The notes under the pieces are model-generated. The model worked only from the letters and a program-made list of their open reading frames with translations. It did no database searches and was not told the DNA's origin. Of a stretch of DNA of 32,000 nucleotides, positions 1 through 22,363 are shown in pieces; the first letter of the stretch is position 1, and each line of letters starts with the position of its first letter. Both the position numbers and the translations under genes were made by a program. The DNA is taken from positions 6,486 to 38,485 of the forward strand of contig NC_001732.1 of the NCBI RefSeq assembly GCF_000091665.1, written 5' to 3'. Origin of the DNA: Methanocaldococcus jannaschii DSM 2661. GTDB taxonomy: Archaea; AGJL01; Methanococci; Methanococcales; Methanocaldococcaceae.

Positions 1-903
1 CCTACATCTTGTTCCATCATAATACTCGATATAGATTCTTTTTTTATCTTCAGAATTTGCAATTTTATCAGCACACTCTACAAGTTTTTCTTCAATTTTT
101 TTCAAATATTCCAACCCAGAAATTTGTTTTTTATTCTCCTTACACTCATATTTTACAGTAAGTGCAGCATATACTAAAAATGACTTTTGAACTGAAGAAT
201 TCTCACCAATACCAAGTAATTTTGCCAAATGCTCTTCAGGAACCAATATTGGATTCAATTTTGCAGGTAGAATATGAGTATTCCTCATTTTCACGTATTC
301 TCCATGCGGATCAACTATTACAATATTCATTTTTCCCTTATCCTTTTCAAACAATTCTTGGACTAACACGGCTATAGTATTTGATTTTCCAGCCCCAGTC
401 ATTGCCAATACAGCAAAATGCCTTGAACAAAGCTCTTTTGCATTTAATTTCACTTTTGTTGAAGACCTTACCTTTAAATAACCTACTTCAATACTACCAT
501 TTGAAAATATTTTAGCTAACAAATCATCCTTAGTCAAATAAACATTCTGAGGCACATTTATTGGATATACGTTAGATTCAATACTTCCACTTTCATTATT
601 AATTACTCCCAAAATTTTTGCACTCGCTAAAAATTTAGAAGAATTATTTAACATTTCTTCAGAATATATAACACCCCTAATCTTAGCTAACTCACTAGCA
701 TCTTCCGATTTATCACCAATTAGAGCATTAACAGAAACAATCTTGGTAATTTTTGAAAGAAGATAGTCCCCATGTGTATTTTTTGTAATGACAAACTCTC
801 CCTTCTTAATCTTGTCAATAACCTGGTTCTCAATTACAAACTCAAATTCATTAACATTTTTTGAAGCTACAACAGTCCCAACAACTACACTGTTTATAAC
901 CAT
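1..903 (-). CDS. HerA/DUF87-type ATPase, N-terminal 301 codons; the rest lies beyond the left window edge
   Basis: Own translation of the minus strand from ATG (reverse complement of 901-903): MVINSVVVGTVVASKNVNEFEF... Walker A RHFAVLAMTGAGKSNT (about nt 379-405) is followed by NIVIVDPHGEY, the HerA-type motif pair. The frame stays open to nt 1. It is absent from the ORF track because no stop lies in the window. Confidence 0.8.
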   Translation of the reverse strand, partial: MVINSVVVGTVVASKNVNEFEFVIENQVIDKIKKGEFVITKNTHGDYLLSKITKIVSVNALIGDKSEDASELAKIRGVIYSEEMLNNSSKFLASAKILGVINNESGSIESNVYPINVPQNVYLTKDDLLAKIFSNGSIEVGYLKVRSSTKVKLNAKELCSRHFAVLAMTGAGKSNTIAVLVQELFEKDKGKMNIVIVDPHGEYVKMRNTHILPAKLNPILVPEEHLAKLLGIGENSSVQKSFLVYAALTVKYECKENKKQISGLEYLKKIEEKLVECADKIANSEDKKRIYIEYYDGTRCR

Positions 904-2679: not shown

Positions 2680-3405
2680 ATGAGGATTTTATTACTTGAG
2701 GGAATTACGGATGTTGCATTCTTCATTCCAATATTAAAGAAATTATATGGTTTTTCAGAAATTAGTTGTGATGGTATTATTAGAGCAGAAAAAATGGGAG
2801 ATATATCAAAACCAATATGTTTAGAGAATGAAGATGTTAAGTTGATAGTTTTCCACTCTGGAGGAAAATCAAAACAAAAACATGCTTTGACAGCAATGCT
2901 TACGGCTATTAAAATGGGTTATTTATCTAATATTAAAATCTTGGGCATTGCAAGGGATATAGACCAAGAGCATGATGTCAAAAACTGGACAAAGAGTATA
3001 ATAAAAAATGCTGGATTTGAAGTTAAAGAGGGTGACAAATTTTTGATTATAGAGGATTTAAACTTAAAAATAGCTGTTTTGGGTATTGCTAATTATGATG
3101 AGGATGATTTTAACATCCCATCATTTGAACTAAAAAGAGAACTCGAGGCAGTAATTACTGATATGGCTAAAGAAATCAGCATCATAGAAAAATTCAAAAA
3201 CTCTTTAGAATCATTAAGTAACGATGCTGAAAGAAGATTAAAGCCAAAAGACATAACGCACGTTTTAGCCATTGCTAAAAATTTTGACGGAGACTCCATG
3301 TCTGGCTTATATAGGAAATTTATTGAAGAGCAGATAAATAATAAAAATAAAGTGAACTTTTTATTAACACTAATATGTATTCTACCATGCCTCACCATCT
3401 TTTAA
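2680..3405 (+). CDS. Toprim-like protein (OLD/AriB/RloB-like nuclease partner of the ATPase)
   Basis: The start lies 2 nt after the ATPase stop, with GGGGGT upstream. MRILLLEGITDVAFF supplies the conserved Glu and ILGIARDIDQEHD about 85 residues later supplies the DxD, which is Toprim spacing. Confidence 0.55.
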   Translation: MRILLLEGITDVAFFIPILKKLYGFSEISCDGIIRAEKMGDISKPICLENEDVKLIVFHSGGKSKQKHALTAMLTAIKMGYLSNIKILGIARDIDQEHDVKNWTKSIIKNAGFEVKEGDKFLIIEDLNLKIAVLGIANYDEDDFNIPSFELKRELEAVITDMAKEISIIEKFKNSLESLSNDAERRLKPKDITHVLAIAKNFDGDSMSGLYRKFIEEQINNKNKVNFLLTLICILPCLTIF

Positions 3406-3887: not shown

Positions 3888-4201
3888 CTTATTCATTAAA
3901 ACCTACAAAAATATTACCATTTTTGCATATATGCTGGATAAAAGTTGCTCTATCACTTAAAAGTTGCAGTTTTTTAATTGAAAGTTTTAAAGTTCTGATA
4001 ATAGAAATTCAAACATTAAAAATAGTATGTTGGATAAAACCATATAAAAACTATTTTTCCATTGAAATCACAATTTTTTCATGATACACAAAAGTTTAAA
4101 TACTTTTGTTTTGATAAAATTTTGAAAAAAATATTTATACTCGAAATTTTAAAGAAATAAGTATGTATAATCTCAGTTAAAAATTACTGAGGGTGATAAA
4201 T

Positions 4202-6001
4202 ATGTGTTATAATTTTGAAAATGTTAAAAAAGCTTATGAGGATCAACTTAAAAACTATATAAAAAATAGTTTAATTCCTAACCTCTCCTCACATGCAAAT
4301 AATGAAGTAGTTAAAATTTCAATGAAAAAACTGGCTAACTTGGGTTTTGGATATTTAGTGGATAGTACATTATCAAGTATAACTGGATATTATAAAGTTA
4401 GAGATTGGATTGAAGAATTATTAAAAGAGGAATTACAGAAATCTGGAGAAAATAAATGTTGTAATATAGTATTATGTGATTATCCAGAAGAGTTTGAGAT
4501 TAGCATGAGGGAAATTCCTTATTATGTTAATAAGGTTGTAAAATTTAATGGTGTTATTATTTCAGCATCATATCCTTGTGTTCTTTCTAAAAAACACTTA
4601 TATATATGCCCTAAATGTGGAAGGATAAAAGAAGTTTATTTTAGTGAATTATTTTGGGATGATAAGGTTTTTTGTGAATTTTGTGGAGGAAAGATGGAAT
4701 TTGCAAATGTGATGGATTATGAAAATTTTCAGGAATTAGTAGTCCAAGATTTATCTGATGAGAGTGAGTATTATGGTATTGAAAAAAACCCAATAGTTTG
4801 GTACTGTGGTGCAAAACCATATTATTTTGGACATGTGAAAATTACGGGAATTGTAAGGGAAGTTCCCAGAAGCTCAAAAAGTCGTATTTATGAGTTGATA
4901 GTTCAAGCTATAAATGTTGAAAAATTGGGAGTTGAAAAATCTCTAATAAATTTAACTGAAGAAGATGTTAAAAATATTAAGAAAGTTGCAAAGAGGGGAG
5001 ATATTATTGACATATTGGCTGATATATTGATCCCACCACTCCTCTGTGATGATGCGATTGTTAGAAAAGCCATACTTATACAGCAAATAGCCCCATATTT
5101 AGAGGACATAGGCAAGATTAACATTCTACTAGTAACGGAAGTTGGTATTGACAAGACAGCCATTCTAAAGAGAATTGGGAATATTCCTGGAAATAATTTT
5201 ATAAACATAGCGGCGTTGAAGGAGGAGGAATTAGCCACACCTTATGATAAAAGAAGTAATATACTGGGAAAATTTTATACTGTATGTGGAGGTGTAATTC
5301 CAAGGACTCTTGGAGTATTATGTATTGATGATTTTAACGAGAACAATAAATTAAGTACAAAATTATCTGAAGCTTTTGAGAGGAATGTTCTTACAACTAA
5401 TAAGGGTTCATTTTATTGCGTTCCCGCTGAGTGTAGTTTCTTATGTGCATGCTATCCTAAAACGAAATTTAGAAAGTTTGATCAAAAGAAAAGTATTATA
5501 AAACAGATAGGGATTTCGTCAATTTTATTAAAAAATTTTGATTTAATATTTCCAATTAGGGATATTCCCGACAAGGATAGGGATGAAGAGGTGGCAAAAT
5601 ACATTTTTCTAAAGTATATAAACTCAGATAATGAAGAAATTGAAGGATATGATTATGTATTTGTAGATGTTGGTGGAGAAAAAATAAAAATTGATTTTGA
5701 ATTTTTAAAAAAATATGTTGTTTACTCAAGACAAATAACTCCAAAAATAACTGATGAAGTCATAGAAAAAATTTCAAACTGGTATGATGAAATGAGGAAA
5801 AATCATTATATCACTGCAAAACAATTAAATACTGTTATAAAACTTAGTATAGCAGTAGCAAGGGCAAAATTAAAAGAGTGTGTTGATGAAGATGATGTCA
5901 AAGAGGCAATAGATATAATAATGCACTATTTAAAACAAGTTGTTTATAATCCAAAAAAGGGAATTATTGATGTTATTTTGTTGTATAAAAACAAAACATA
6001 A
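4202..6001 (+). CDS. mcm: MCM-family AAA+ protein with degenerate catalytic motifs
   Basis: GGGTGA lies 5 nt before ATG 4202; the ORF track starts at GTG 4193 inside the RBS. The C4 zinc ribbon is CPKC...CEFC (4607-4684). INILLVTEVGIDKTAILK, GVLCIDDFNE, NVLTTNKGSFYCVPAECSFLCACYP, NFDLIFPIRDIPDKDRDEEVAKYI and ITAKQLNTVIKLSIAVARAKL are colinear with the MCM core. Confidence 0.8.
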   Translation: MCYNFENVKKAYEDQLKNYIKNSLIPNLSSHANNEVVKISMKKLANLGFGYLVDSTLSSITGYYKVRDWIEELLKEELQKSGENKCCNIVLCDYPEEFEISMREIPYYVNKVVKFNGVIISASYPCVLSKKHLYICPKCGRIKEVYFSELFWDDKVFCEFCGGKMEFANVMDYENFQELVVQDLSDESEYYGIEKNPIVWYCGAKPYYFGHVKITGIVREVPRSSKSRIYELIVQAINVEKLGVEKSLINLTEEDVKNIKKVAKRGDIIDILADILIPPLLCDDAIVRKAILIQQIAPYLEDIGKINILLVTEVGIDKTAILKRIGNIPGNNFINIAALKEEELATPYDKRSNILGKFYTVCGGVIPRTLGVLCIDDFNENNKLSTKLSEAFERNVLTTNKGSFYCVPAECSFLCACYPKTKFRKFDQKKSIIKQIGISSILLKNFDLIFPIRDIPDKDRDEEVAKYIFLKYINSDNEEIEGYDYVFVDVGGEKIKIDFEFLKKYVVYSRQITPKITDEVIEKISNWYDEMRKNHYITAKQLNTVIKLSIAVARAKLKECVDEDDVKEAIDIIMHYLKQVVYNPKKGIIDVILLYKNKT

Positions 6002-7840: not shown

Positions 7841-8945
7841 ATGAAATTTTTCAACAGGGAGAAAGAGATTAATGAGATACTTCGAATTTTAAATAGAGAG
7901 CCAGACGATATTTATTTTATATATGGACCCTTAAACAGTGGAAAAACTACTTTAATAAATCACATAATAAACAATGAATTAAAAAAATCCAATAAAAAAT
8001 ATGCTGTCTTTTATGTTAATTTCAGAGAGTATGATATTTACATCAATGGATAATTTTGTTGAGGCATTGTTTGAAATAGACGAAAATTCGAAAGAAAAGA
8101 AGATAAAATCATACATAGAGAGTTTTACAAAGGGAGTTAATGATATTATAAACTTATACTATGGGATAAAGATTCCAGAGCCAATATTGGATAAGTTTTT
8201 TGGAGAAAAAGAAAAGGGGGGATTGGTTTTTAAGTTTATTAGAGATTTATTTATGAGTTTGAATAAGAAGGGAGTTCAGCCAGTATTCATTTTAGATGAA
8301 TTGCAGATGATTAAAGATATTGTTATGAATGGAGGAAAGCCATTATTAAAAAGCTTATTCCAATTTTTGGTTTCTTTAACAAAGGAGAGGCACATAGCAC
8401 ATGTTTTTTGCCTAAGTTCAGATAGTTTGTTTATTGAGTATGTTTATAATGCTGGAGAGTTAGAAGGAAGGGCGAAATATCTATTGGTTGATGATTTTGA
8501 TAAAGAAACTTCCTTAAAATTTATGGACTTTTTAGCAGTAGAAGGAAATATTAACTTAACTAATGAAGATAAAGAGTTAATTTATTCTTATGTTGGGGGA
8601 AAGGCAAAGGACATAAAGTATGTTATTGAAGAAAGTAAGTTTAAAGACTTAAGAGAGGTTTTGGACTTTATGTTAAAAGATGAGGTTTCCAAATTGAGAA
8701 AATTATTGGTTAAGATAAAAACTAAAAAGATTGCAGAAGTTGAGTATGAAAATGTTGTTAAAGCATTAAAATTATTTAAAGACAATTATGAAATCAACGA
8801 ATACCTTATGGACGAGAATACAAAAGAATTCTTAATTAAAAGGAATATCTTATTCTTAAACCCCGTAGAGGAGATTTTAAAGCCACAAAGTTATTTAGTT
8901 TGGAACGCAATAAAAAGAGTATTACAAAATATAAACGATTTTTAA
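7841..8945 (+). pseudogene. 'Archaeal ATPase' family P-loop NTPase, frameshifted near 8030-8045
   Basis: ORF 7841..8053 ([14 protein letters not shown]...GPLNSGKTTL...FYVNFRE) and ORF 8001..8945 (...[17 protein letters not shown]...FILDELQ...) together align end to end with the intact neighbour 8962..10059. The frame changes after FYVNFR at the (ag)3 run. Confidence 0.75.
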
Positions 8946-8961
8946 AATTATTGGTGGGATT

Positions 8962-10059
8962 ATGAAATTCTTCAATAGGGAAAAAGAAATTAATGAAATT
9001 CTTTTAATCTTAGAAGAAGAACCAAATAATATTTATTTTATTTATGGTCCTTTAAATAGTGGAAAATCAACCCTAATAAGAGAAGTTATAACTAATAGAT
9101 TAGACAAGTCAAAATACATACCATTTTTTATTGATTTTAGAACGAGAAATATTTTAAACGTTGATAATTTTATTGAATGCTTGTTTGAAGTGGATGAAAA
9201 ATCAAAAATAGACGATTTTAGGGAATATGCCAAATCATTAGCTGATTTGTTGGTTAAAGGTAGTGAAGAGATTAGCAAATACTACTTGGGTATGCCTATT
9301 AAAGTGCCAAAACCATTCTTTGATAGAATTTTTAGTAAAAGAGATAAATCAGCAGATGTCTATCAATATATTGAATATTTATTTGCTAAATTAAATGAGA
9401 AAGGTAAAAAGCCAATTTTAATATTTGATGAATTACAGATGATTAGGGAGATAACTTTAAACGGGAATAGGTTACTATTGTGGAGTTTATTCCAGTTCTT
9501 AGTTGCCTTAACTAAAGTTCAACATCTATGCCATGTTTTCTGCTTAAGTTCTGATAGTTTGTTTATTGAATACATCTACGGAAAAGCTGAATTAAAGGGG
9601 GGAGTTGATTATATCTTAGTTGATGATTTTGATAAGAAAACTGCCTTAAAGTTTATGGATTTTTTAGCCAAACAAAAGAATATTAATCTAACTAATGAGG
9701 ATAAGGAGCTAATTTATTCTTATGTTGGTGGAAAGGCAAAGTATATTTATGATGTTATTGTCAAGTTAAAAGCTGTTAAAGATTTGAAATATATTTTAGA
9801 GACAAAACTTGAAGAGGAGCGGAATCACTTGGAAGAATTATTGGAGAAGGTTGAAGAAGATTATGAAGGCATAAATTATGATGAAGTCTTAGAAGCATTG
9901 AAATTGTTTAAAGATAATTATGAACTTCCAAAAAGTAAGATAAAAAGGAAAATTAGGATATTTTTAATTAAAGAGAATATTTTATTCTTAAATCCACAAA
10001 AAGGAACTTTAAAGCCACAAAGTTATTTGGTTTGGAATGCTATAAAGAGAATGTTGTAA
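8962..10059 (+). CDS. 'Archaeal ATPase' family P-loop NTPase (STAND-like, probable C-terminal winged helix)
   Basis: GGTGGG RBS. Walker [11 protein letters not shown], Walker B ILIFDELQ. Tandem paralogue of 7841-8945 and paralogue of 22690-23709. Confidence 0.85.
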
Positions 10060-10116: not shown

Positions 10117-10329
10117 ATGAGCATTCTCATTTCTAATAAACAATTCAATCATGGGTTAAAGGATGAATTTGCTACTAAAAAGGATTTAGAATTGTTAGAA
10201 GAGAGGATTTTGAGATATGTTGATAATAAGTTCAATCAATTGGATAAAAAAATTGATAGGACTTTTTATTTACTTGTCTTCTTTATTATACTGTGGGTAT
10301 CTCGGGAGGCATTTTTTTATTTGATATAA
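10117..10329 (+). CDS. Small coiled-coil protein with C-terminal hydrophobic segment
   Basis: 70-aa ORF with KKDLELLEERILRYVDNKFNQLDKKIDR followed by FYLLVFFIILWV. It starts at the breakpoint of the vapC relic. Confidence 0.45.
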   Translation: MSILISNKQFNHGLKDEFATKKDLELLEERILRYVDNKFNQLDKKIDRTFYLLVFFIILWVSREAFFYLI

Positions 10330-10330
10330 T

Positions 10331-10415
10331 CCGAACGCCTCCCTCATCGACACCCGCTCCCCTTTACGGGGACAGACCCCCTACTGCCCCGATAGGGACA
10401 GCTAGGAAGTAGCCT
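10331..10415. ncRNA. GC-rich island with two tandem CCCC...GGGGACAG hairpins; candidate structured RNA or 3' element
   Basis: ccgaacgcctccctcatcgacacccgctcccctttacggggacagaccccctactgccccgatagggacagctaggaagtagcc stands out against AT-rich flanks. The hairpins are tcccc-tttac-gggga and ctgcccc-gata-gggacag. Confidence 0.25.
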
Positions 10416-10445
10416 TAAACTTTAATAATACTTATTATTGATAAA

Positions 10446-10754
10446 GTATTATACGTTCATACATATAAAAAATGTGAGAAAAATGAGAAAATAAAATATG
10501 TAATTTAAATTGTTAAGATTTAATAGTTTAAACGTGTGAAAAATGCTTGTTTTTAGAACATTGTATAATGTATTATGTAAATTATCTTTGGATATAATTA
10601 AAAATGTAAGAAAACCATTGAGATTTGGTGTAAAAGAGGGATAGATTGATTATATTGAAAAAAGTTTATGTTGTAAAGTGTATATTCATAATTGGTTTTT
10701 ACTAATGGACAAAATTATACAGTTTAAAATTTAAGTTTATAAATTAGTATTATT
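10446..10754 (+). repeat. Left copy of ~309-bp direct repeat
   Basis: The ends align nearly perfectly with 12770-13078 (gttcatacatataaaaaa..gagaaaaatgagaaaataaaa..atgtaatttaaatt ... aaaaccattgagattt..gtgtaaaag...agattgattatatt..aaaaagtttatgtt..taaagtgta...acaaaattatacagtttaaaatttaagtttataaattagtattatt). The centre is diverged. Confidence 0.85.
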
Positions 10755-10829
10755 CTCTTTTAGAATTTCTGCTATATGTTTAAAGCAGTTTTTCAATATT
10801 TATAATATAATTAAATCGTATGTTTGAAG

Positions 10830-10851
10830 TGGACTTTAGCCCCAAAGTCCA
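10830..10851. repeat. Hairpin tggacttt-agcccc-aaagtcca, related to the GACTT..AAGTC core of the palindrome family
   Basis: 8-bp perfect arms read directly. Confidence 0.7.
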
Positions 10852-10894
10852 ACAATGGTTAAAAATTTTCGGACACCATGCCAAAACATAGAGC

Positions 10895-10987
10895 AGATGC
10901 CACTGCAGTATATACAATATTATAATATTATATTATCAATGGCATACAGTGGCATCTCCAGAGAAGTGTAAATCCAATATGCCACTG
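10895..10987. promoter_or_regulatory. Origin-like element: AGATGCCACTG / CAGTGGCATCT inverted repeat around a 41-nt almost pure A/T spacer, plus a third ATGCCACTG
   Basis: AGATGCCACTG lies at 10895-10905 and its exact complement at 10947-10957. The spacer is cagtatatacaatattataatattatattatcaatggcata. ATGCCACTG recurs at 10979-10987. Confidence 0.4.
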
Positions 10988-11088
10988 AATATATAAAAGA
11001 AAACTATAATAATCCCTATTTTCAAAAAATAACTGTCATTACATAGCCTTGTTTGGTGAAAACACAGAAAAATTTGTAGTGATGTGTT

Positions 11089-11235
11089 ATGGGTATTATA
11101 GGTTTTGTTAATGCATTAGCTAACGTCTTTATACTACTTATATTAGGTATGGTAGGTATTTTTATTTTTGCATGGTTTTTGTTTTGCAGAGAAGATGAAG
11201 AGACAATTAGAAAAATAAAAGAAGATGATTGGTGA
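11089..11235 (+). CDS. Possible 48-aa single-pass membrane protein
   Basis: Own translation: MGIIGFVNALANVFILLILGMVGIFIFAWFLFCREDEETIRKIKEDDW*. This is one clean TM helix plus a charged tail. It is below the ORF-track size cutoff and the RBS is weak. Confidence 0.3.
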   Translation: MGIIGFVNALANVFILLILGMVGIFIFAWFLFCREDEETIRKIKEDDW

Positions 11236-11837
11236 AAGTGTGAAGTTATTAAAGATTTTTCTATTTGTTTTGTTTTGTAGTTAGAGTAGTTCTAAGTTGT
11301 GGTTGTATTGGAGATGAATGCACTCCACACCCATAGGCACTATAAGCGCGTTGAAAAGATGAATACAGTTTGTTCATGGAATGTGATAAAATTCATTAAA
11401 AATGAGTTTAAAACAATTCTTCACAATTCTTTAGGAGGATACTATGAGGTTGGTAAACTCTTTATTATAGCAGTGGCAACAAAACAGAAACAACCCTAAC
11501 TCTTTTATTAAGAATACCAACACCACCAAAACATCACCCAAAGCACCCTTATGAATAAAATGAACATCACACGAGAATCCACTCCCCTAACACTCTTTTT
11601 ACCCAACACCTTAACAACATTCATGAAACACCACACACAAACAAATCCTAAAATCAAAACATGCCACTGTATAAAACTATTGATAATAATTAATAATATA
11701 AAAATTATCAAACTTAATACTACCAAAACAAATAAAATAAATTCCCACCACAAAACAAAACAAACAAATATTATAATCACCAAACAATATAAAAACAATA
11801 ATATTATGTAAATTCCCATTAGGGAAAAGGTGAAAAC

Positions 11838-12282
11838 ATGCTCAAAAAACTATTTGGAAAAGACGATGAAAAAACAGACGAACGAATTAAAAAATTAGAA
11901 AACAGAATAGAAAAAATAGAATTAGAGTTAAAAACCATAAAAAACACAAGTTCATACCCACAAATTATAAGAATAGAAAAAGAACTCCAACAAATAATAA
12001 AAACAGACATTGACAAACTAACAACCCTATACATCAAACTCCAACCCAAACCCAACACCATAGAACAAACAAAAAATCATACAAATACTAAAACACGAAC
12101 AACCCCTACAATCATCAAAAATAGTAGAAAAACTAAAACCAAACATAAAATCAAAAGGAACAATCTACCAAGCCCTAAAACAACTACAAAAAGAGAAAAA
12201 AATAACAAAAGCCACAGTCAAAGAAAATGGTAAAAGAAAAGTATACTACAAACTCACAGATGAAAACACTGATATAACATAG
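11838..12282 (+). pseudogene. Coiled-coil plus winged-helix DNA-binding protein split by a +1 frame change near 12064-12080
   Basis: A strong RBS (AAGGTGA) precedes ATG 11838. The N-terminal part is coiled coil (ERIKKLENRIEKIELELKTIK...). After about codon 75 the tracked frame becomes low-complexity, whereas the +1 frame is open 12064-12282 and reads KIIQILKHEQPLQSSKIVEKLKPNIKSKGTIYQALKQLQKEKKITKATVKENGKRKVYYKLTDEN*. Confidence 0.6.
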
Positions 12283-12324
12283 AAAACATCCCTAATCCTA
12301 ATTGTTAAAAACATTAATTATCAA

Positions 12325-12364
12325 GGGAGGTTGCCACACTTTTTAAAAAGTGTGGCAACCTCCC
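12325..12364. repeat. Perfect 40-nt palindrome GGGAGGTTGCCACACTTTTT|AAAAAGTGTGGCAACCTCCC
   Basis: Checked base by base: 20+20 nt with no mismatch. It lies 42 nt after the wHTH frame stop. Confidence 0.95.
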
Positions 12365-12651
12365 AAATATTCCTATAAGAAACAAAATTTACCATAAAGT
12401 AATAAAAACCCCATAAACTTATTTTCCTATAGGATAAATGCCATTGACTATTAGAAAAACAACACTCTTTTATGCCACTGCTAACACACAATAAATTTCC
12501 ACATTCTATACACAATAAAGTGTTTTTAACCGTAATTTTCAACATTGGACTAACCACTCTAACAGAAATGTGAAATACCCCACACACTTCCAAGACATGA
12601 AACGCCCCTTATTTTTCAATTTTTCAATTGTATTTACTAACATTCACAAAA

Positions 12652-12687
12652 GAGGAACAGCCAATTTTTAAAAATTGGCTGTTCCTC
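12652..12687. repeat. Perfect 36-nt palindrome GAGGAACAGCCAATTTTT|AAAAATTGGCTGTTCCTC
   Basis: Checked base by base: 18+18 nt with no mismatch. It shares the TTTTTAAAAA centre with the 12325 palindrome. Confidence 0.95.
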
Positions 12688-12769
12688 CAACACCATAAAA
12701 ATGCAGACAACAAACCAAAAACCCATTAAGCAACATACTGAGATTGAATTATTACAACCTATAAAAATA

Positions 12770-13078
12770 GTGTTATATGTTCATACATATAAAAAACATG
12801 AGAAAAATGAGAAAATAAAAGATGTAATTTAAATTATTGTAATTTTTCTATTTTTGTGAGTAAATTGTGTTTAGTTTAAGAAGTATTCCCCACTTATTAT
12901 GTAAGTGGATTATTTACTCCACTAAAAATGTAATAAAACCATTGAGATTTAGTGTAAAAGATGAATAGATTGATTATATTAAAAAAAGTTTATGTTATAA
13001 AGTGTACCTTGATAATCAGTTTTCACCAATAGACAAAATTATACAGTTTAAAATTTAAGTTTATAAATTAGTATTATT
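12770..13078 (+). repeat. Right copy of ~309-bp direct repeat
   Basis: See 10446-10754. Confidence 0.85.
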
Positions 13079-13103: not shown

Positions 13104-13349
13104 TTAAATATTTATTGTTTTTAGTATTTGTTCAAATTCTGTGTATTTGATTTTGACTGGGAATAATAGTACGTTTCCAAAAAAGTTATTTTTATATTTC
13201 AATCCTTTAATGTTATATACCATGCTAATGTATTCTAAGATTGTATCAACAATGCTATCATTTAAGTCTCCCAATACAATTCCATAATAAGTTTTCCAGT
13301 AATCAGCAATATCATCTTCTTTTAAAGGATTAAAAAGTGATTTACCCAT
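13104..13349 (-). CDS. Hypothetical protein, 81 aa
   Basis: The ORF has normal amino-acid composition (MGKSLFNPLKEDDIADYWKTYYGIVLGDLNDSIVDTILEY...). A degraded copy of its 5' part lies at about 21300-21400. A palindrome copy sits 2 nt upstream of the start. Confidence 0.5.
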   Translation of the reverse strand: MGKSLFNPLKEDDIADYWKTYYGIVLGDLNDSIVDTILEYISMVYNIKGLKYKNNFFGNVLLFPVKIKYTEFEQILKTINI

Positions 13350-13351
13350 AT

Positions 13352-13375
13352 TGAATTGACTTTGAAGTCAATTCA
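13352..13375. repeat. Palindrome family copy P2 (TG centre, i.e. P1 in opposite orientation)
   Basis: tgaattgactt-tg-aagtcaattca, with perfect 11-bp arms. Confidence 0.95.
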
Positions 13376-13429
13376 CGATTATGGAAATAGTGAAACAGTG
13401 TTAGAATAAAACAAAAAGGGTAAATAAAC

Positions 13430-13633
13430 TTATTTCTTCAAAGCTAGTTTTACGTCTTCGACTTTTACTGTTTTTCTCTTTGCCATGTTTTGCCAAGTCA
13501 ACAGCTTCTTTAGCTATTTCCAAAGCTAAATCTTCTATAGCCTCAGCAAAGTATTCCGCTGCAGCCCTACTAACTCTCTCAGCCCCATCCTTTTTTAATA
13601 TCCTTACAAACGGTGCAACTGAAGCTCAGCCAT
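13430..13633 (-). pseudogene. Archaeal histone gene with two compensating frameshifts (-1 near codon 5, +1 near codon 50)
   Basis: It has the same 204-nt length as the intact histone gene (29732-29935) and keeps RBS, ATG and TAA. My alignment shows actgaagctc versus actggaagctc (1 nt lost) and 67 versus 66 nt between ctttgc and gtattc (1 nt gained). The central 45 codons ([43 protein letters not shown]) are out of frame with both ends. Confidence 0.8.
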
Positions 13634-13699
13634 AACACCACCCAAAAAAACTTATACTCAAAAATTATCAATTAAAACCTACAAAAATATTACTATTTT

Positions 13700-13990
13700 T
13701 GTACATATACACCTCCCAATATTATAATATTCTACAATACAATAATTACATAATACCACAATACAATAATCCAAAATCATGCTAAAGAAAAATCCAATAA
13801 AACCCAAAAGAATAACATGATTACATAATAAAACAATACAACAATTAATTAATAACATAATAAAAATAAAAACTTGTTAAAATTATAATATTTTAAACTA
13901 ACTAAAAAGAAAATAAAAATATAAAAATTAAAAGAGGGGGAGAGCCCGAGAGGGGAAGGGGAGAAAATGAGAAAAGTGGAAATACTATAA
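13700..13990. repeat. Arm 1 of a long inverted repeat (partner 31640-32000) with GC-rich polypurine core
   Basis: The reverse complement of 31640-31760 aligns with 13850-13985 (ataaaaataaaaacttgt..aaatt ... aaaattaaaagagggggagagcccgagaggggaaggggagaaaatgagaaaag). Core: 13934-13962. Confidence 0.7.
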
Positions 13991-21583: not shown

Positions 21584-22363
21584 ATGGTTGTAATTTCAAT
21601 TGCAAATCAAAAAGGGGGTGTTGGAAAAACAACAATAGCATTAAACCTATCATTTACACTTGCAGAAAAGGGGTATGATACTTTAGTAATCGATTTAGAC
21701 CCACAATTCAACTTATCCTTTGGAATTTTGGGAATGAAATTATTAGATTATGCTGATAAAAATATTGGAATACTATTATCAAAAAATTCTGTTAAGAAGA
21801 AAGAAATTGAAGAGTCTATTATAAAAATTAATGATAAGTTAGATTTAATCCCCTCCCACTTGCAGCTTTCTGCTGTAGAAAAAATGTTAGTTAATGCTTA
21901 TGCAAGGGAAATGAAGTTGAAAAATATCATTAACCAAATCAAAGAAAATTATGACTACATAATAATTGATAATGCCCCATCATTAGGACTATTTTTAATA
22001 AATTCATTAGTGGCATCTGATTATATTATCATCCCATGTGAGCCAAGTTATTTTAGTATTGCAGGAGTTCAACTAATGTTAGATACTGTTGAGGAAATAA
22101 AAGAATCAAACTTGAATCCAAAACTTAAAGTTTTAGGGTTTATTTTCAACAAGTACTCTAAACAATCAAAAATTCCACAAAAGAGGTTAGAACAGTTAAA
22201 ACAACTCTATCCTAACATTCCAGTAATTGGAGTAATTCCAAGAACTATTACTGTTGAAAAGGCAGAACGTGAGGGAAAACCTGTGTTTAAATTTGATGCT
22301 AATAATCCTGCAAGTGTTGCATTCTCAGAACTTGCTGAGTGGGTGATAGAAAATGTCAAATGA
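21584..22363 (+). CDS. parA: ParA/Soj/MinD-family partition ATPase
   Basis: GGTGAG RBS. Deviant Walker A NQKGGVGKTT (21605-21634), DLDPQ, and IIIDNAP Walker B. Confidence 0.92.
   Translation: MVVISIANQKGGVGKTTIALNLSFTLAEKGYDTLVIDLDPQFNLSFGILGMKLLDYADKNIGILLSKNSVKKKEIEESIIKINDKLDLIPSHLQLSAVEKMLVNAYAREMKLKNIINQIKENYDYIIIDNAPSLGLFLINSLVASDYIIIPCEPSYFSIAGVQLMLDTVEEIKESNLNPKLKVLGFIFNKYSKQSKIPQKRLEQLKQLYPNIPVIGVIPRTITVEKAEREGKPVFKFDANNPASVAFSELAEWVIENVK

Follow-up and report, generated by a model that had tools for sequence, protein, structure and literature searches.

Two long perfect palindromes with a T5A5 center behind a winged-helix gene of a Methanocaldococcus jannaschii plasmid: possible leaky transcription boundaries

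The DNA analyzed here (hereafter the window, 32,000 nt) corresponds to positions 6486-38485 of a 58-kb element of Methanocaldococcus jannaschii DSM 2661 (NC_001732.1) with a GC content of ~28%. Among its genes are those for an MCM helicase (4193-6001), two PF01637 "archaeal ATPase" proteins (8001-10059), and ParA (21584-22363). A winged-helix gene, whose stop codon is at 12280-12282, is followed by a perfect palindrome (pal1) that begins 42 nt later, a second perfect palindrome (pal2) 287 nt further, and a 310-bp repeat (repeat B) 81 nt past pal2, an order that bears out the initial annotation, which had placed the palindromes downstream of this gene. The features of the locus are as follows, in window coordinates:

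11838-12282, + strand: winged-helix gene, encoding a coiled-coil plus winged-helix (PadR / HTH_11-type) protein
12285-12638, no strand: segment that does not align with metagenomic relatives, in which 39 nt stand here
12321-12593, - strand: ORF of 90 codons that reads through pal1, most likely not a gene
12325-12364, no strand: pal1, a 40-nt perfect palindrome with 15-nt arms (GGGAGG + TTGCCACAC) around TTTTTAAAAA
12340-12349, no strand: T5A5 center of pal1, with T5 also on the minus strand
12371-12434, no strand: imperfect inverted repeat adjoining pal1
12438-12480, + strand: two iteron copies, ATGCCATTG at 12438 and ATGCCACTG at 12472
12652-12687, no strand: pal2, a 36-nt perfect palindrome with 13-nt arms around TTTTTAAAAA
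12665-12674, no strand: T5A5 center of pal2, with a homologue in metagenomic contig L011 at 908-912
12769-13078, no strand: repeat B, ~81% identical to repeat A at 10445-10754

Base composition across this region is strongly asymmetric, with an A+C-rich + strand that has only 103 G in 1261 nt (approximately 11500-12760). The winged-helix gene is +1 frameshifted near an A-run (12071-12076), and the identical frameshift is found in 8 of 8 independent assemblies. Its read-through product matches PadR and HTH_11 above Pfam cut-offs, and an intact 146-aa homologue with 78% identity is encoded on six hydrothermal-vent metagenome contigs (L011-L016; positions 396-836 in L011). The agreement of assemblies, together with the intact homologue, indicates a true pseudogene or a recoded gene and not a sequencing error. 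The minus-strand ORF that spans pal1 was suspected in the initial annotation of being spurious, and we agree, as we found no homologue of it and the ORF itself is not among the called proteins of a 15-billion-protein collection.

The interval between the palindromes (12365-12651) is predicted to fold more stably as RNA than shuffled sequences, with a z of -3.8 for the minus strand and -1.6 for the + strand, and much of the minus-strand excess is owed to the imperfect hairpin at 12371-12434. A minus-strand noncoding RNA in this interval is possible on the basis of predicted folding. A search of Rfam 15 yielded no match to the locus at gathering thresholds and only generic hairpin matches below threshold. 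Farther upstream, an 85-nt GC-rich hairpin island (10330-10415) without an Rfam match separates the stop of ORF 10117-10329 from repeat A, and stands before repeat A as pal2 stands before repeat B. A 78-nt stretch with a small GC hairpin (10798-10875) is 78% identical to chromosomal positions 690337-690414 (contig C1), which adjoin a match to a tyrosine integrase (C1:691024-691497); by sequence resemblance, it may be an attachment or control sequence shared with an integrated element.

Both palindromes are real and extreme for this genome. They occur exactly at 12325-12364 and 12652-12687 with zero mismatches, as first reported, and 8 independent public assemblies are 100% identical across both, which argues that they are not assembly errors. 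In a scan of the whole genome (1.74 Mb; three contigs of 1,664,970, 58,407, and 16,550 bp), pal1 and pal2 rank first and second among all perfect palindromes. The third longest is 32 nt with a GC fraction of 0.12, and pal1 and pal2 are the only long perfect palindromes with a GC fraction above 0.25. Base composition predicts 2.2e-5 palindromes of at least 40 nt and 2.7e-4 of at least 36 nt per genome, and the longest palindrome did not exceed 24 nt in any of 100 Markov simulations of the 58-kb element. Pal1 and pal2 also head a genome scan for perfect-stem hairpins in which loops of up to 14 nt were allowed. Elsewhere, the chromosome carries dispersed families of hairpins with 11-13-bp stems (for example, C1 at 131386, 549506, 730063, 619063, and 1150416); these families, TGAACGCCTTCC...GGAAGGCGTTCA and GCATTGCTTCC...GGAAGCAATGC, are unrelated to pal1 and pal2.

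The two palindromes had been described as unrelated in sequence and built on the same plan, and both descriptions are supported. Their centers, 325 bp apart, share the identical 10 nt TTTTTAAAAA, and their inner 18-nt half-sites agree at 11 of 18 positions, including GAGG at the outer end (CCTC on the other side). Conversely, the flanks of pal1 and pal2 have no significant similarity to each other (z 0.4), so the palindromes are unrelated as far as this can be tested, and palindromy stops at their ends. An origin of the pair as diverged duplicates was considered and draws no support from the flanks; similarity is not significant flank to flank, nor between either flank and the spacer of the relative. 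The likeness of the first arm to the iteron of the element is also confirmed. The TTGCCAC in the arm of pal1 equals the first 7 nt of iteron copy TTGCCACTG (minus strand, first base 11479).

Comparison with the metagenomic relatives separates the two palindromes. DNA identity between the host element and the relatives is 87% over the gene and 79% downstream, and repeat B, an A/T-rich module, is conserved after pal2 in both. In the relatives, the pal2 homologue begins 58 nt past the stop of the intact gene and is conserved at 35 of 36 positions in L011-L015, where a single A in the left arm has become an unpaired C, and at 34 of 34 in L016, which shows no change up to the end of the contig. At most one difference in 36 nt has a probability of ~3e-3 given a flank divergence of 21%. 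In contrast, the segment that holds pal1, the imperfect hairpin, and two units of an iteron and a TATA-like box (315-354 nt within 12285-12638, with breakpoints that are approximate owing to low-complexity DNA) is missing from L011-L016. Therefore, pal2 is conserved and pal1 is dispensable. The initial annotation had raised absence from related plasmids as evidence against a function; in these close relatives, pal1 is missing and pal2 is kept. Despite this difference, the first feature after the gene is a T5A5-centered palindrome in both elements, pal1 in the host and the pal2 homologue in the relatives. We conclude that the palindromes are under some constraint.

A DNA homologue of 11300-12900 is absent from 40 Methanococcales genomes, the C-terminal part of the winged-helix protein has no match in 39 other Methanococcales genomes, PLSDB has no match by DNA or protein, and the cores of pal1 and pal2 are unmatched in IMG/VR. 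A scan of JGI metagenomes matched a single contig, which is already among the known relatives. More distant homologues of the gene, with 35-43% identity (including those on L077, L078, L080, and L081), have no comparable palindrome downstream. The gene is thus accompanied by a palindrome, pal2 alone, at 78% protein identity, and by no comparable one in the 35-43% homologues.

The relatives also differ from the host element in the arrangement of surrounding modules. In L011, the N-terminus of a ParA-type protein with a Walker-A motif is encoded divergently (1-98, minus strand) ∼300 nt upstream of the winged-helix gene, whereas ParA on the host plasmid (21584-22363) sits 9 kb from that gene, indicating that modules have been shuffled. 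A segment with a histone gene is inverted between the window (13349-13700) and L011 (2553-2931), and a copy of a palindrome of the family GTGAATTGAC...GTCAATTCAC is at the breakpoint of this segment in both. This family may mark recombination or module boundaries.

We examined the locus for signals and products of transcription. The + strand lacks any run of at least four T from 11800, before the start codon, to the center of pal1, and its first such run after the start codon is the T5 of that center (12340-12344); an absence of T-runs over 500 nt of a T-poor strand is not significant alone (∼0.9 expected, an estimate). Three further T5 runs follow on the + strand between pal1 and pal2. In L011, the center of the pal2 homologue is the only T5 of the + strand between 380 and 1100. 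RNA hairpins at 85 °C have predicted energies of -10 kcal/mol for pal1 and -5 kcal/mol for pal2, with the center of the latter predicted to open into a 12-nt loop. The + strand tails, AAATATT after pal1 and CAACACC after pal2, have no U-run straight after the stem, TTTT follows the stem on the minus strand of pal2 only, and a scan for the consensus terminator called neither pal1 nor pal2.

Evidence from RNA consists of unstranded assembler contigs of RNA-seq runs, in which breaks exactly at the palindromes are an effect of k-mer assembly and are without meaning. In run X1, the gene has a contig depth of 89, the stretch between the palindromes 82, and the sequence past pal2 29; in run X2, the corresponding values are 50, 28, and ∼0. 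In run X5, there is nothing over the gene or the interval and a 148-nt contig extends from inside pal2 to 12802. These profiles suggest that pal1 is crossed by RNA with little loss and that pal2 is at the boundary of some RNA species. As the contigs are strandless, the step at pal2 could equally be the start of a transcript.

We suggest, with a probability of roughly 0.4 and thus tentatively, that pal1 and pal2 are leaky two-way boundary elements of the winged-helix transcription unit, each with an oligo-T on either strand inside a hairpin that is stable at 85 °C. The TTTTTAAAAA center would offer an oligo-T tract, a stop signal for archaeal RNA polymerase, on both strands, and this signal would be met by transcription from the gene and by antisense transcription from the promoter-rich repeat B. 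By virtue of the GC-containing arms, read-through RNA would fold into an 18-20-bp hairpin able to withstand 85 °C, and this hairpin could set RNA ends and shield them; on the minus strand, rich in T and G, U-rich sequence would follow it. Termination would be leaky, especially at pal1. This proposal builds on where the palindromes stand with respect to the gene in two related elements, on the pattern of T-runs, on the predicted stability of the hairpins, and on the RNA step at pal2. That polymerase actually stops there, on which strand it would do so, and that the arms matter at the level of RNA is what we infer.

The arrangement of both elements, with a T5A5 palindrome directly after the gene although the palindromes are different ones, is in favor of the boundary reading. 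The succession of gene 10117-10329, GC-rich hairpin island, and repeat A also parallels that of winged-helix gene, palindrome, and repeat B. Further points in favor are the dependence of archaeal termination on short U-rich tracts (PMC7515710), the TTTT that follows pal2 on the minus strand, and the bacterial palindromes at gene ends described below. Against it, the T5 is inside the hairpin and not after it, which implies that a polymerase halting there would not yet have made the hairpin. RNA depth is nearly flat across pal1 (89 to 82 in run X1), and the hairpin scan found the design used by no other gene in the genome. Moreover, perfect Watson-Crick symmetry through the center is not needed for an RNA hairpin. 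In genome-wide maps of archaeal 3' ends, U-tracts are not preceded by a hairpin (PMC7515710), and known archaeal termination therefore leaves the arms of pal1 and pal2 unexplained. The bidirectional hairpin terminators, one of three possible roles listed at the outset, gain positional support. The T5 of the center is the first T-run in host and relative and RNA steps down at pal2, but the implied layout of a stem and then a T-run is absent, save for the T4 on the minus strand of pal2, and RNA crosses pal1.

Alternatively, the palindromes could be recognized as DNA. They may be dyad-symmetric sites for dimeric proteins encoded by the element, such as operators, silencers, or partition-type sites, a reading that we consider nearly as probable as the boundary reading, with which it is not mutually exclusive. 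Under it, the iteron of the cassette would recur in pal1 as an inverted pair made perfect, and pal2 would be a second class of site, perhaps for the adjacent coiled-coil winged-helix protein. The iteron is a 9-mer, [AT]TGCCA[CT]TG, that clusters at 10897-12480, mostly 0-3 nt 5' of a TATA-like box, in agreement with a link to promoters; such a box is immediately 3' of ATGCCATTG and the nearest A/T box to ATGCCACTG is ∼10 nt off. In pal1, the TTGCCAC core of the iteron abuts the A/T center on both strands, repeating the syntax of iteron and TATA box. The probability of finding this core in the arm by chance is ∼1e-3 (an estimate from base composition), and inverted iteron pairs around A/T spacers also occur at 10897-10957 and, in L012, at 3002-3035 and 3161-3200. 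The symmetry that is perfect through the center, the conservation of pal2 at 35 of 36 positions in flanks that are 79% identical (P ∼3e-3), and the neighboring protein's scores above Pfam cut-offs for PadR and HTH_11 are likewise as expected of protein sites, and in both elements, a gene for a DNA-binding protein adjoins a palindrome, with ParA divergently upstream in the relatives. Other features fit poorly. The arms differ, which would call for two proteins or for a single one that recognizes chiefly GAGG and the center, and 36-40 bp is long for a single dimer. The sites come after the gene instead of at its promoter, the relatives do without pal1, and the distant homologues of the gene (L077, L078, L080, and L081) are without a comparable palindrome downstream. 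Still, with the sequence of pal2 conserved and an iteron core in the arm of pal1, the operator listed in the initial annotation is plausible. We also observed that the inverted iteron pairs of L012 are placed differently than those of the host, after the histone gene.

Proximity of iterons to TATA-like boxes, at 0-3 nt, raises a third reading in which each palindrome is a symmetric bidirectional archaeal promoter, with T5A5 as a two-way TATA box and the arms as elements for recognition by factors; the arm of pal1 would be the iteron that precedes the other TATA boxes of the cassette. Pal1 has this same syntax on both strands, and each palindrome is flanked by RNA to its left and right. Despite these points, we regard promoters as improbable here. 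Promoters of host tRNA genes, which are strong ones, read CCGAAAAG + TTTATATA and T5A5 is in 0 of 36, the arms have no purine-rich element (BRE) next to the center, and depth to the right of pal2 falls and does not rise. The contig of run X5 begins inside pal2, ∼40 nt upstream of the predicted rightward start. Short ORFs at the start sites predicted for pal2, which would be leaderless (ATGs at 12701 on the + strand and 12643 on the minus strand), were set aside because they are not conserved in the relative. A role in replication, as cruciform or hairpin DNA structures or as ORB-like initiator sites of the origin of the element, is no more probable than promoters. The region is downstream of genes of the ATPase_2 (Cdc6-like) family and amid iterons, and iterons, A/T-rich repeats, and two PF01637 ATPase genes all fall within 4 kb. 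The reverse complement of the iteron presumably resembles the mini-ORB core, and an A/T center with GC arms favors extrusion of a cruciform. PF01637 is among the domains reported in MJ0774, the proposed initiator of Methanococcales (PMC4009838). Nevertheless, the A/T center is merely 10 bp compared to the unwinding element of tens of bp in an ORB/DUE-type origin, the nearest ATPase_2 gene ends 2.3 kb away, and maxima of GC and purine skew are at the switch of gene orientation ∼4 kb off and not at the palindromes. A Pfam scan of 26 window ORFs and one ORF of a relative identified no rolling-circle or HUH-type gene. Plasmids of hyperthermophiles are generally relaxed or positively supercoiled, which disfavors cruciforms. 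The suggestion of a cruciform-forming origin or nick site in the initial annotation consequently gains no support, given a dispensable pal1 that the relatives lack, a center of this size, and an element on which no rolling-circle or recombinase gene was found.

Recombination is the least probable of the readings weighed here, and we give it very little credence. A site-specific recombinase would act on pal1 and pal2 as its core sites, which would resemble loxP, FRT, or dif and share the same 10-bp crossover region; alternatively, they would be remnants of a mobile insertion. The inverted arms of 13 to 15 bp around a short A/T spacer, the identity of the center in both, the indel of 315-354 nt that includes pal1, and the shuffling of surrounding modules between relatives are all in keeping with such sites. 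Yet the element has no tyrosine or serine recombinase (zero matches to PF00589 and PF00239), the arms of pal1 and pal2 differ, and a symmetric spacer confers no polarity. The relative has a whole pal2 and no hybrid of pal1 and pal2, and the breakpoints of the indel are not at the centers. The segment is single-copy and without terminal inverted repeats. Other kinds of mobile structures were considered separately and rejected. For MITE or IS end hairpins, the genome has just one copy of the 2-kb inner segment, which is unmatched in 40 relatives, and for integron attC sites, IS605 ends, and telomere-resolution sites, there are no conserved core boxes, multiple copies, or hybrid site, and the flanks do not continue the palindromes.

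The boundary and protein-site readings can be combined. The palindromes could represent an undescribed archaeal "insulator" in which a protein bound to the arms and the release signal of the central T5A5 jointly stop RNA polymerase from either side, isolating mobile gene cassettes on plasmids of hyperthermophiles. We think this quite unlikely. Such a mechanism can be likened to the termination of eukaryotic RNA polymerase I at a roadblock plus a T-tract. Between the last T of the center and the outer edge of the far arm there are 18-20 nt, close to the downstream footprint of an RNA polymerase; the match is suggestive only.

The design also occurs outside of archaea. Scanning 185,579 species genomes with the pattern GAGG-N9-T5A5-N9-CCTC yielded 51 matches, including nine 36-nt palindromes, all of them perfect and from unrelated bacteria. 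Six of these nine, and seven of the 10 near-perfect matches that were examined, are 11-30 nt beyond the 3' end of the neighboring ORF. Hence, the plan is not unique, and elsewhere it behaves like a hairpin at the end of a gene. Eight bacterial genomes (L018, L023, L024, L027, L030, L057, L061, and L063) were found to have perfect palindromes of 36-44 nt with GC-rich arms and a T5-6A5-6 center, often 11-30 nt past the 3' end of a gene and often without flanking T-runs. A palindrome with a T5-6A5-6 center may be a widespread design of hairpins.

Archaeal transcription termination is thought to need a U-tract only. A U-tract at the dyad of a long, thermostable, perfectly symmetric hairpin, in a model archaeon for transcription in vitro, would offer a ready natural test of whether termination in archaea can be tuned in either direction by the structure of RNA or DNA or by a protein on the site. 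Such a case would likewise help to show what insulates neighboring cassettes on Methanocaldococcus plasmids. Should pal1 and pal2 instead be ordinary operators, they are candidate targets for an uncharacterized family of plasmid regulators. Either way, the practical value is modest for now.

Like archaeal intrinsic terminators, which use oligo-T or U-tracts and are assisted by aCPSF1, pal1 has a T5 soon after a stop codon, the first such tract on the strand, and its site would be leaky and is followed by consecutive T5 runs. Unlike them, as they show no preceding hairpin (PMC7515710), pal1 and pal2 have their T5 at the center of a perfect palindrome of 36-40 nt, with its mirror image on the opposite strand. 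With bacterial Rho-independent and bidirectional terminators they share a stable, GC-containing stem-loop just past the 3' end of a gene. But the T-run is in the loop, the + strand lacks a U-run immediately past the stem, and the host is archaeal, with a polymerase not known to need hairpins. Similar to operators of winged-helix proteins (MarR/PadR type) and centromere-like sites of plasmids, there is a perfect dyad, an adjacent gene for a dimer-forming winged-helix protein, and conservation in the case of pal2; in contrast to such operators, pal1 and pal2 are twice the usual length, have two different arms, come after the gene rather than at its promoter, and are missing beside more distant homologues of the gene. 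On the same element, they resemble the GTGAATTGAC...GTCAATTCAC family of 24-26-bp palindromes, which also have a center of the TnAn type and are intergenic and at module boundaries. The members of that family, seven or more, all use the same arm sequence, whereas pal1 and pal2 occur once each and are much longer.
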